NCBI GenBank assembly: GCA_963974535.1 | Contig: CAXBCN010000006.1 | Coordinates: forward strand, 21,007-85,006 | From: an uncultured Cellulophaga sp. | GTDB taxonomy: Bacteria; Bacteroidota; Bacteroidia; Flavobacteriales; Flavobacteriaceae | DNA length: 64,000 nt | Direction of reading: 5' to 3' | In this document: positions 43,709 through 46,746 of the stretch, one piece after another | Layout of the letters: the number at the start of each line of letters is the position of its first letter | Numbering within the stretch: the first letter of the stretch is position 1 | Translations under genes and position numbers: made by a program | The notes under the pieces: model-generated | What the model was told of the DNA's origin: nothing | Database searches by the model: none | Seen by the model: only the letters and a program-made list of their open reading frames with translations

Positions 43709-44233
43709 ATGTACGAAAATACGTTTCCGAACACGCGTTTTAAGCACACCTTAGCATTTCTTCAAAAGCATATAGCGACTTCTGAATCTATTTTAGATTT
43801 AGGTGTTGAAAATCCATTTACAAAAATAATGGTCGCCAACCACTATGAGGTAGCGAACACACATGGCGAAGATTTAGATTTTGATTTCTCCAGTGTTATT
43901 GCTTCCGATGCCAAGGTGGTAACGGCTTTCGAAATTTTTGAGCATTTACTCGCTCCTCTTAACGTATTACGTGAAATAAAAGCAGATAAATTAGTCGCTA
44001 GTATTCCCTTGCGCTTATGGTTTTCACCCGCCTATCAAAGTAAAACCGACGCTTGGGATCGGCATTATCACGAGTTTGAAGATTGGCAATTCGACTGGCT
44101 TTTAGAAAAAGCAGGTTGGAAAATTATCGACCGTACTAAATTCACCAACCCCGTCAATAAAATAGGCCTGCGCCCTTTACTTCGAAAAGTTACGCCAAGA
44201 TACTACTTGGTGTATGCGGAGCGCATGCCCTAA
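43709..44233 (+). CDS. Short class I SAM methyltransferase-like protein
   Basis: ILDLG, FEIFEHL, HYHEF motifs. Confidence 0.65.
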   Translation: MYENTFPNTRFKHTLAFLQKHIATSESILDLGVENPFTKIMVANHYEVANTHGEDLDFDFSSVIASDAKVVTAFEIFEHLLAPLNVLREIKADKLVASIPLRLWFSPAYQSKTDAWDRHYHEFEDWQFDWLLEKAGWKIIDRTKFTNPVNKIGLRPLLRKVTPRYYLVYAERMP

Positions 44234-44268
44234 TTTTGGTTCAGCTTCTTTTTTGTTACTTCTAGAAT

Positions 44269-44341
44269 ATATAACATATGTCAGATATATCTTAAATTAG
44301 CAGTATAAAGAACATATGTTTTATATACTATTGTTAGCGAC
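44269..44341 (+). repeat. attC-like element 0 (hairpin ending in core GTTAGCGAC)
   Basis: ATATAACATATGT (44269-44281) / ACATATGTTTTATAT (44312-44326) imperfect inverted repeat, then TTGTTAGCGAC (44331-44341). Confidence 0.55.
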
Positions 44342-44367
44342 AAGCGACCAAAAAACAATGTAACTAC

Positions 44368-45015
44368 ATGAAAATAATTGAACAATTACTATTCTTCATT
44401 TCTTGGACAATAATTATAGGCTTATCAGTTTATTTTCTTCTGGAAAATGTAGGTGTTTATTTTACTGGATATAGAAGTGATAGTTACATTAACAACCCGA
44501 TTTGGGTAAGTTCCCACTTAATAGGTGGAACATTAGCATTACTATTTGGCCCCATACAATTCTCTAAACGGATTAGAAACAAATATTTGACTTTTCACAG
44601 ACTGACAGGGAAAATTTATATCATTGGAGCATTTATAGCAGGTTTATCGGCGATTAGGCTTTCACTAATTAGTTCTTGCTTGCCTTGTAGAGTTTCACTC
44701 TTCATTTTAGCTATTTTGGTCCTTTTTACTACTTTTTCAGCTTGGTGGTGCGTAAAAAATGGAAATATCAAAGCACATCAACAATTTATGGTTCGAAGTT
44801 ATATCTGCATACTTTCATTTGTAGCTGTAAGAATTGGAGGGATTATTCCTTTGGACTTTTTATTTGGACAAATTGAAGACCCAACATTTGGCAGAACTGT
44901 AAATGAGTATTTCTTTTCATTTGTCCCAATAATTTGTGGTGAAATATTTATGATTTGGATTCCAACATTAAAAAATATTAAAAGAAAAAAAAGTCGAATT
45001 AATACCAGTCGCTAA
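44368..45015 (+). CDS. DUF2306-like membrane protein
   Basis: SHLIGGTLALLFGPIQF...FHRLTGKIY, HQQFMVRSY; about 6 TM. Confidence 0.8.
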   Translation: MKIIEQLLFFISWTIIIGLSVYFLLENVGVYFTGYRSDSYINNPIWVSSHLIGGTLALLFGPIQFSKRIRNKYLTFHRLTGKIYIIGAFIAGLSAIRLSLISSCLPCRVSLFILAILVLFTTFSAWWCVKNGNIKAHQQFMVRSYICILSFVAVRIGGIIPLDFLFGQIEDPTFGRTVNEYFFSFVPIICGEIFMIWIPTLKNIKRKKSRINTSR

Positions 45016-45525
45016 CAAAGAACTGAGGTAAAAAACAACTCTTTTCTTCATTGAAGTAAGACACAATATTTAGGCTCATAGTTTCATTAAACTGATTCTT
45101 TGAGCTTTTTTAATTAGATTTTTTTCTAGTTATTTGGGTACCCTAATCTGATCATTTCCGTAGCTTTTTTTACAAAATGAATAGCACTATCTAAGAGTCT
45201 TAATAACTTTTTAATTTCCGTTCCACTGTTTTTGAACGGATAGTACTACCTTCTGAACTTGTAACGCTGATCATCAAATGGCCAATGTATATTCTAAAAA
45301 ATTTACTGCCTTAGGTATAGTTAGATGATTTTTGAAAGGACCACCTTTGCATTTTCAAGGACTTAAAATCGAATTCTTAAAGCTTCACAACTGCCGACAG
45401 CTAGGAAACAATACAAAAAAATAAAGTGGTTTTAAATAGGGTCTAAATCAAATCCTCTACGTGTATAGCAAGCTTAATTCTCTCTTTGCTTCTGTCTTGC
45501 TCGTATCTCAATTTAAAGAAAAGCC

Positions 45526-45648
45526 GTGTATAATTCATTGTTAGTTATAGCCTACTAACCGAAGTCTTAACGGACTATATATCTGTAATTTATTTGCTAA
45601 CTTAGTTGCTTAACCCCGCAACTAACCATATACAAATAGGTTGCCAGC
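45526..45648 (+). repeat. attC-like dispersed repeat, copy A
   Basis: Aligns without gaps to 46630-46746; TGTATA/TATACA inverted ends; ends TACAAATAG-GTTGCCAGC. Confidence 0.6.
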
Positions 45649-45679
45649 AATTAAAGAAAACTGAGTTATATATAGAAAA

Positions 45680-46210
45680 TTGAGATATGTAATAGTAGCA
45701 TTTATCACAATTGGCACCTTTGTTTTAAGTTGTAAACAAGACAAAAACAATTCCGTAGTATCTGAAATTGTTGCTACCGAAACAAAGGTAACAGCACCTA
45801 ATCCAGATGAAGAAAAAATAAAAACAACTATCAACAAATTGTTGTTCAATGCTGGAAATTATAATGTTTTGGCATTAGATTCGATGATCTCTGATAAGGC
45901 AATGCTTGGAATAAGCAGTTTAAAAGATGGAACTTGGTCTAATTCAGAAATAGCCATTAACGATTTCTTTGAAAGTGTAAAAAAGATGGAACGTAGTCCT
46001 TACTGTGAGATACCTAATGACTATGACATCATAATTACGAAAGGTCAGTTAGCTTTAGCACGAGCTGATTGCATTCTATACCGATGGGGAATTTCCCAAA
46101 CAAGGGAAATAAACCATTTTACATTCATCAAAGAAAATGGGAATTGGAAAATTCTCAATATATCTTGGACTAAAGAGGAACTTTCTAAAAAAAAAAGAAC
46201 TATGATTTAG
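45680..46210 (+). CDS. NTF2-like lipoprotein (5' part of a frameshifted gene)
   Basis: VLSC lipobox, NTF2-like end FTFIKENGNWKILNISW; stops 14 nt after an A10 run. Confidence 0.75.
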   Translation: MRYVIVAFITIGTFVLSCKQDKNNSVVSEIVATETKVTAPNPDEEKIKTTINKLLFNAGNYNVLALDSMISDKAMLGISSLKDGTWSNSEIAINDFFESVKKMERSPYCEIPNDYDIIITKGQLALARADCILYRWGISQTREINHFTFIKENGNWKILNISWTKEELSKKKRTMI

Positions 46211-46596
46211 AAATCTTTGCTCGTGGATATGCACAAGCTTGGTGTAGTCAAAGACCAAATTTTGTCTCATCCTTTTTCACTGAAGATGGCGTACTACAGA
46301 TCAATGATGGCTCCTCGGCGAAAGGAACTGAAGCGATAACAAATGTTGCTAATGCATTTATGGAGACTTTTCCAGATATGGTTGTTTCACTTGACAGTTT
46401 GACCACCCAATCAGATAAAACACGATTTTATTGGACACTTACTGGAACAAATAAGGGCACCAATGGAACTGGAAATAAAGTTAAAATTAGCGGATTTGAA
46501 GAATGGACTTTGAACAAGGATGGACTAATCCAAGAATCAAAAGGCTATTTTGATCCTAAAGAATATGAGCGCCAATTGAACTTTGGCATCAACTAA
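46189..46596 (+). pseudogene. SnoaL/ester cyclase-like NTF2 domain in the -1 frame (3' part of the split gene)
   Basis: Frame is open from the A10 run (KNYDLEIFARGYAQAWCSQ...FPDM...WTLTGT) with no ATG until 46360. Confidence 0.7.
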
Positions 46597-46606
46597 TCAT
46601 AACTAT

Positions 46607-46746
46607 TACCAACAAAATTACCCTGCATGTAATTAATTGCTTGTTGCTAGACTACTTAAAAAAATGACTGCAAATTCTATATACCACCTATATTTGTAAA
46701 CTTTTATGGGCTATCACACAACTTTTCCTTTACAAAACCGTTAGCC
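46607..46746 (+). repeat. attC-like dispersed repeat, copy B
   Basis: TACCAAC at 46607, shared blocks with copy A at offset 1100, ends TACAAAACC-GTTAGCC. Confidence 0.6.

Follow-up and report, generated by a model that had tools for sequence, protein, structure and literature searches.

The window analysed here is a 64,000-nt stretch of a contig from an uncultured Cellulophaga sp. The genes gcvP, a fabH-like gene, and a methyltransferase gene are common to the examined locus in all members of the genus, and what follows them differs. In the window, they are succeeded by a hairpin repeat (site 0), a DUF2306 gene, a repeat split by an insertion-sequence remnant (copy A), a broken NTF2/SnoaL gene, a decayed repeat (copy B), and a histidine kinase gene (Table 1). 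This order would correspond to a fossil array of gene cassettes without a recombinase, in which the repeats are cassette sites, the element inside A is a dead member of the IS110 family, and the NTF2 cassette carries a pseudogene.

Table 1. Features of the putative cassette array in the window.
Feature	Position	Strand	Remarks
Site 0, ~70-nt hairpin repeat of another family	44263..44335	+	ssDNA fold z -2.7
Cassette 1 (DUF2306 gene and IS-interrupted putative site A), GTT to GTT	44333..45642	+	
DUF2306 membrane-protein gene, cassette 1 cargo	44368..45015	+	Pfam PF10067, E 2e-24
R'' box of site A, GTCGCTAAC	45008..45016	+	overlaps DUF2306 stop codon
IS110-family remnant, internally deleted, ~509 nt	45017..45525	-	boundaries good to ~2 nt
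Copy A body, family 1	45526..45642	+	nhmmer E 8e-30; Infernal 84.7 bits
Copy A, inner parts			L'' GTGTAT 45526-45531; small hairpin 45561-45578; L' ATATAC 45628-45633
Copy A, 3' end			spacer AAATAG after L'; GTT 45640-45642
Cassette 2 (two-domain NTF2/SnoaL lipoprotein gene and putative site B), GTT to GTT	45640..46742	+	1100 bp
NTF2-like + SnoaL gene, broken	45680..46596	+	
Copy B, decayed putative site	46603..46742	+	co-linear alignment with family
Copy B, 5' parts			R'' TTACCAAC (AAC 46611-46613); abnormal 14-nt spacer instead of 3; L'' TGTAA 46628-46632
Copy B, 3' parts			L' TTACA 46730-46734; spacer AAACC; GTT 46740-46742

Copies A and B were first recognised in a sequence-only reading by six shared motif pairs, all of which are in place: TAGCCTACT/TAGACTACT, TATTTGCTAACTT/TATTTGTAAACTT, CAACT, TACAAA, GTT, and TAATTCATTG/TAATTAATTG. 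The offset of exactly 1100 bp ascribed to them holds for five pairs, but the TAATTCATTG/TAATTAATTG pair is offset by 1099 bp. This offset equals the length of a cassette, as defined by the GTT at 45640 in A and at 46740 in B. Gapless comparison of 45526-45646 with 46626-46746 gave 60 identical positions of 121, in agreement with the proposed above-chance likeness. None of 20,000 dinucleotide-shuffled versions of B reached this value (mean 34.1, sd 4.8, maximum 55), and no other placement of A scored as high when both strands of the whole window were scanned (~128,000 placements; mean 33, sd 4.9; runners-up 53-55). The similarity is thus real, though weak.

Copy A is a member of a repeat family of ~124 nt. 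BLAST searches of the source genome revealed six partial relatives of A, with 72-84% identity, and no relatives of B. Iterated nhmmer detected at least 18 significant family copies in this genome, most of which are clustered in one orientation among small genes and close to contig ends. Membership in the family by profile is strong for A (E = 1e-21 to 1e-30), but B reached only E = 0.26 to 3.7; in the iterated search it appeared at E ~3 and in the correct register. The further copies that had been predicted for related genomes do exist: a sequence-only covariance model identified the family in 20 of 20 genomes of the genus and 24 of 24 genomes of the family Flavobacteriaceae, with up to 83 scored copies per genome. 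Among 16 genomes from the order's other families, 1 contained it. Read depth over the core of A, as determined for two marine metagenome runs, was 1257 versus ~12 in the flanks and 1957 versus ~5, respectively; a rise of ~100-fold or greater is as expected for a high-copy repeat. A separate 60-nt depth spike in metagenome contigs (up to 643-734 versus ~13) was seen at 44063-44125, inside the methyltransferase gene. This stretch has no second copy in the source genome and may be a conserved coding motif common to many community members.

The repeats of this family are located between small same-strand genes, behind an Xer-like tyrosine recombinase. The complete genome G002 contains an array of same-strand genes alternating with the elements, with the gene for a 297-aa tyrosine recombinase at its head. 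Three cassettes are duplicated there in permuted order, and their neighbours switch exactly at the 3' GTT of the element. The cassette cargo includes genes for DUF2306, NTF2/SnoaL, DinB, glyoxalase, GNAT, cupin, YCII, DUF6090, HTH-DUF4870, and ankyrin proteins. No recognised immunity family was present among the cargo genes seen; NTF2-like folds can be immunity proteins. Large arrays occupy G002:C1:1650001-1690000 (L058/L059; at least 22 sites) and G017:C1:1-76000 (L060-L063; at least 36 sites). They contain several site families with unrelated centres and two size classes (~124 and ~187 nt), as well as duplicated cassettes and a possible two-gene cassette (71 + 123 aa), which is present twice. 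In G017, an IS3-type insertion separates the recombinase gene from the first site.

The sites in these arrays share one grammar: N7-AAC, 3 nt, L'' ... L', 5-6 nt, GTT. A generic end pattern was defined as AAC, 2-4 nt, L'', 75-165 nt, L', 3-7 nt, and GTT, with L'' complementary to L'. On the array strand it matched 22 sites in G002 and 36 sites in G017, against 0 on the opposite strands. The site lengths cluster at 123-127 nt and 185-192 nt, and families with unrelated centres possess identical end architecture. Each element opens with a variable heptamer and AAC, which together are the reverse complement of the GTT and first bases of the same cassette. For 84 cassettes, the 7 nt following the upstream GTT were compared with the complement of the heptamer that precedes the AAC of the same cassette. 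On average, 5.02 of 7 positions matched, with a perfect 7/7 match in 34 cassettes; the corresponding values were 2.87 for the start of the next cassette and 2.73 ± 0.16 for permutations. The grammar of these sites is that of integron attC sites.

These features bear on the possibility that the repeats are a selfish miniature transposon (MITE or REP-like) landing between genes; a MITE family had been among the alternatives of the sequence-only reading. The high copy number, the short inverted ends GTATAT/ATATAC, and the contig breaks would all suit such an element. Its orientation relative to the genes is, however, strictly one-directional (22 and 36 versus 0), no target duplications were seen at the junctions read, the flanks show covariation not with the element but with the distal end of the cassette, and the element travels together with the upstream gene. 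We regard a miniature transposon as highly improbable.

In the covariation check suggested earlier, carried out on 47 sites, 87.1% of the cells of the closing stem and small internal hairpin were paired versus 75.2 ± 0.6 in shuffles. The covariation score was 0.266 versus 0.095 in shuffles, none of 500 shuffles reached the observed value, and slid registers scored at most 0.058. The L''/L' pairs at columns 7-12 belonged to the site-selection pattern, so that the unbiased support comes from the pairs further in. RNAalifold predicted no structure on the first MAFFT alignment, and the consensus structure was set by hand. In an intact site, the bottom (non-coding) strand folds at -18.4 kcal/mol (z -2.75) versus -12.0 for the top strand. 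The small hairpin of family 1 reads GAAAATCC-TCGC-GGATTTTC, is followed by T-rich sequence, and contains T-G wobbles on the coding strand.

Covarying stems, and a small hairpin that tolerates stem-extending insertions, would also be expected of a structured non-coding RNA gene or riboswitch-like leader; a structured ncRNA had been another alternative in the sequence-only reading. Searches of Rfam with the region and with five intact copies gave nothing relevant (E <= 1-5), the genes downstream have no functional relationship to one another, the long closing stem forms better on the non-coding strand, and unrelated centres share nothing except the end architecture. An RNA gene or leader is thereby left with very little probability.

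A reading of the repeat as a regulatory module, i.e. an upstream terminator combined with a downstream promoter or leader and conserved for expression, has somewhat more in its favour. The element fills the intergenic space, beginning ~20 nt past a stop codon and ending 35-80 nt before a start codon. The small hairpin with the T-rich sequence was detected as terminator-like, the T-G wobbles lie on the coding strand, and the family 1 centre is conserved above its ends. Such a module leaves unexplained the N7-AAC/GTT-N7 complementarity of each cassette, the exact GTT breakpoints, the occurrence of unrelated centres with the same ends, and the putative docking site by the recombinase described below. 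No canonical Bacteroidota TAnnTTTG box was found at a fixed place, and terminator-like matches were not above shuffles (3 versus 4.0). We therefore consider a purely regulatory repeat unlikely. A promoter or leader had been the first reading of the element, from its position upstream of genes, and was dropped on account of the cassette-end complementarity and the GTT breakpoints. Regulation may well be a second function of the family 1 centre. Its central ~80 nt are nearly invariant across genera and conserved beyond the ends; this exceeds what a recombination hairpin would need and points to an additional function, for which a transcriptional role is plausible.

No array-type recombinase is encoded in the window; the copy of this genome is located on contig C17, and the nearest tyrosine recombinase match on the contig of the window lies outside the latter, at C6:126031. 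The gene on C17 (680-1807) is intact and encodes a 375-aa protein, the N-terminus of which is ~105 aa longer than that of the G002 protein. The region C17:1-1900 (L064) comprises this gene, a putative docking site, and one 185-aa cassette, after which the contig ends. The own copy and its G017 orthologue pass the NF040815 model (XerA/integron integrase; 235 bits versus a cut-off of 220) and fail TIGR02249, the integron integrase model (195-207 bits versus 265), and NF011946 (127-144 bits versus 435). The best solved relatives of the recombinase are archaeal XerA proteins. Its alignment to VchIntIA (2a3v) splits, with 27 aa where IntI has 70 (residues 179-248), which indicates that the IntI-specific domain is missing. 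Lacking the extra domain of the IntI clade, the recombinase is not an integron integrase, a point that the sequence-only reading had overlooked.

Directly after the stop codon of the recombinase gene, a conserved hairpin followed by AATT-GTT was found in 15 genomes, namely in Psychroserpens, Winogradskyella, Xanthomarina, Gelidibacter, Bizionia, and Vicingaceae MAGs. The sequence is conserved up to GTT and variable beyond it, and the hairpin covaries in Vicingaceae. It is a putative attI-like docking site, the position and orientation of which are not those seen in integrons. A strict search for the end pattern (perfect L box) within 4 kb behind the recombinases of other genera revealed almost no sites, probably owing to differing site families in these genera.

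None of the assembled copies in the source genome retains both AAC and GTT. Many of its repeat copies occur within 200 nt of contig ends (C8, C16, C37), so that the arrays seem to break the assembly. Since, in addition, the contig with the recombinase gene extends no further than the first cassette, an active array, if this genome has one, is probably unassembled.

Taken together, A and B are very probably attC-like recombination sites of an integron-like gene-capture system of the Flavobacteriaceae that is widespread among marine members of this family. The architecture of the sites, their covariation, the complementarity of cassette ends, the GTT breakpoints, and the differing cassette content among relatives were shown by sequence comparison. 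The AAC/GTT ends with covarying inner stems, the bounding of cassettes, and the rearrangement breaks at GTT are in accord with the dispersed recombination-site family that had been proposed as the first of the alternatives. From these features we infer single-strand folding in vivo, the exact cleavage position, and the role of the recombinase as the enzyme. An intact array would begin with the Xer-like tyrosine recombinase gene and the hairpin docking site ending with AATT-GTT, followed by same-strand cassettes, each composed of an ORF and a site of 123-127 or 185-192 nt. The site would fold single-stranded, the bottom strand better, and folding would bring its two ends together. The recombinase would then cut at G|TT, allowing cassettes to be released as circles and to enter the docking site or a different site.

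In copy A, the TGTATA/TATACA inverted ends noted earlier are real and form the L''/L' stem of the site; likewise, the reported TAC-N6-GTT is its end, consisting of L', spacer, and GTT. The start of cassette 1, GTTAGCGAC (44333-44341), is the exact reverse complement of GTCGCTAAC at the end of the DUF2306 gene. The latter is the true R'' box of A, since the intervening 509 nt consist of the two ends of an IS110-family element. The possibility that A simply has no R'' box was rejected, this box being present 509 nt upstream. The sequence-only reading had overlooked this 5' end of A behind the insertion-sequence remnant and also the decayed state of both copies in the window. When A is repaired by deleting the remnant and joining the start of its own cassette, its bottom strand folds at -20.0 kcal/mol (z -3.3). 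Copy A is thus predicted to be the site of the upstream DUF2306 cassette.

Site 0 ends with ...ATATAC-TATT-GTT directly before this cassette. It has a 95% identical copy in G008, which diverges just past GTTAGCG, and is multi-copy across the genus, with several matches stopping exactly at GTT (query 68-136). No obvious AAC box was found in site 0, which may be a docking-like site or may belong to another site family.

The element inside A is inserted between R'' and L'' and has lost its transposase gene. Both of its ends align with full-length copies of ~1.3 kb in G012, G005, G018, and G004; in intact copies, the strand opposite to that of the cassettes encodes a DEDD transposase with PF01548 and PF02371 domains. 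Multiple copies of the left end occur in 9 genomes of the genus. In each of the 12 copies examined, this end directly follows a variable N-AAC, and right ends adjoin the L'' of three different site families. Judged from these junctions, the IS110-family element appears to target cassette sites between the AAC of R'' and L'', whatever the site family. Its full-length relatives combine a DEDD transposase with site-specific insertion, as is characteristic of IS110/IS1111 elements. Deleted derivatives of 162, 509, and 1036 nt were found. Besides the window, loci of this element include L067:7471-8313, L065:6134-7105, and L089-L092. A DUF6090 remnant was also considered for the 45016-45520 gap and rejected; tblastn and tblastx found none, and the gap is the IS110-family remnant.

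Cassette 2 shares 93.4% DNA identity over 964 nt with a cassette in G077, a member of another genus. The homology begins exactly at 45640, the GTT of A, and ends at 46602. In G077, another site precedes the NTF2 cassette, and the site that follows it is intact and of the long class, with an R'' that matches the start of that cassette at 11 of 12 positions. An intact NTF2/SnoaL version of 310 aa is encoded there (L083:1489-2418). In the window, the ancestral ATG reads ATA (45667-45669), and the loss of a G (AAAGAAAAAAA to A10, 46187-46196) causes a frameshift between the two domains. Contigs of run X3, from a close strain, retain the extra G. The A10 run may still be a homopolymer assembly error, since the sole run matching A10 is probably the source sample.

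Copy B has a degraded centre and no significant fold. Together with the profile values given above, this would fit a reading in which only A is a real family member and the resemblance of B is due to chance or to AT-rich, promoter-like composition. Against this, the 60/121 match is above all other placements and shuffles, and B is co-linear with the family over the whole site, including R'', the TGTAA/TTACA pair, and L'-spacer-GTT. Also, its 3' half is orthologous to that of a site in G017, which adjoins the same histidine kinase gene and has a clear family 1 match in its 5' half (E 6e-8). A chance resemblance is accordingly improbable. The assignment of B to the family, as one of the two recombination sites, relies on this co-linear alignment and on the orthology of the 3' half. 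The R'' of B is complementary to the NTF2 cassette start no further than GTTG; given this mismatch, B is probably a resident terminal site and not the own site of the NTF2 cassette.

In G017, the closest relative (97-98% GcvP identity), the histidine kinase gene is preceded by a single DUF1905 cassette and a single site, and both cassettes of the window are absent from this locus. The L boxes of the G017 site are unpaired; with a B-orthologous 3' half and a family 1 5' half, it represents a hybrid, for which homologous recombination of one site with another would be the simplest origin. The G001 locus contains different cassettes and a further hybrid site. The hybrid sites in G017 and G001 imply that ordinary homologous recombination between repeats also reshapes these loci. 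In combination with the differing content, they indicate that the insertion point is old and undergoing secondary decay.

Among described systems, the closest is rAID-1, the arrays of recombinase-associated acquired interbacterial defence in gut Bacteroidales. According to the sources (Ross et al., 2019, bioRxiv 10.1101/471110; PMC12247911), rAID-1 is defined by occurrence in Bacteroidales, at least 44% identity of the recombinase to BF9343_RS08045 of B. fragilis, and immunity-gene cargo. Those arrays share with the ones described here the phylum, a XerD-like (here Xer-like) tyrosine recombinase at the 5' end, co-oriented short genes with repetitive intergenic sequences, which the authors call reminiscent of integrons, and a tendency to break assemblies. 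The rAID-1 trait of at least two co-directional downstream genes with repetitive intergenic motifs is present in the G002 and G017 arrays; genes and sites without a recombinase are present in the mini-array of the window. The differences lie in the host, here Flavobacteriaceae, and in the cargo, which is general here. No account of the anatomy of rAID-1 sites was found in the text consulted. No description of the system in Flavobacteriaceae was found in the literature (open-access text).

Integrons are the textbook gene-capture device and are defined by IntI. Integron attC sites form hairpins, with R'' (..AAC)/R' (GTT..) and L''/L' boxes and crossover in GTT; the sites studied here agree with this in their strand-specific ends, covarying stems, complementarity of R'' to the cassette start, and GTT breakpoints. 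Sedentary chromosomal integrons likewise have imperfect hairpin sites with ...AAC and GTT... ends and inner L boxes, crossover at G|TT (predicted in our case), cassette starts complementing their own R'', and large arrays (here at least 36 sites over 65 kb in G017). The species-wide site families of ~124 nt resemble the ~125-bp repeats of Vibrio cholerae. In contrast to integrons, the recombinase described here has no IntI-specific insertion and is co-oriented with the cassettes and located upstream of them, the docking site lies just past its stop codon, and the RYYYAAC/GTTRRRY consensus is only loosely kept beyond AAC/GTT. The window, with site 0, A, and B within 2.5 kb and no integrase nearby, resembles the decayed recombinase-less clusters known as CALINs; its mini-array may be called a CALIN by analogy only, as its sites are not canonical attC. 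The element in A has its counterpart in the IS1111-attC group, which, according to PMC11187229 (citing Tetu and Holmes, 2008, and Post and Hall, 2009), targets integron sites. Both belong to the DEDD-transposase (IS110/IS1111) lineage and insert at a fixed position in one orientation, but the target here is the R''/L'' junction of flavobacterial sites and not integron attC.

A broader proposal, to which we give about even weight, is that Flavobacteriaceae, and probably other Bacteroidota including those with rAID arrays, run hairpin-site, single-strand gene capture with a plain Xer-like recombinase and have their own site-targeting IS110 parasites in parallel to integrons. If this is true, integron-type recombination can proceed without the IntI-specific domain. 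Should there be a second widespread platform that shares this site grammar and uses a simpler recombinase, the known routes of gene flow in marine Bacteroidota would be extended, and a concrete site model would be available for the poorly understood rAID arrays of gut Bacteroides. Such a platform would also be a natural test case for the question of which IntI parts the recombination of folded DNA requires. Many contig breaks and 'orphan gene islands' of flavobacterial assemblies would likewise be accounted for by these sites. What the window itself teaches is modest: its array is a fossil of the system, and both of its cassettes are dead.

The same genome also contains a second fossil array, larger than that of the window, at C7:1574-21976. 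Over 20 kb, small genes with decayed sites all point in one direction there, and the trio of DUF2306, DUF6090, and site recurs among them; the other genes encode DinB, glyoxalase, GNAT, cupin, YCII, and NTF2-like proteins.
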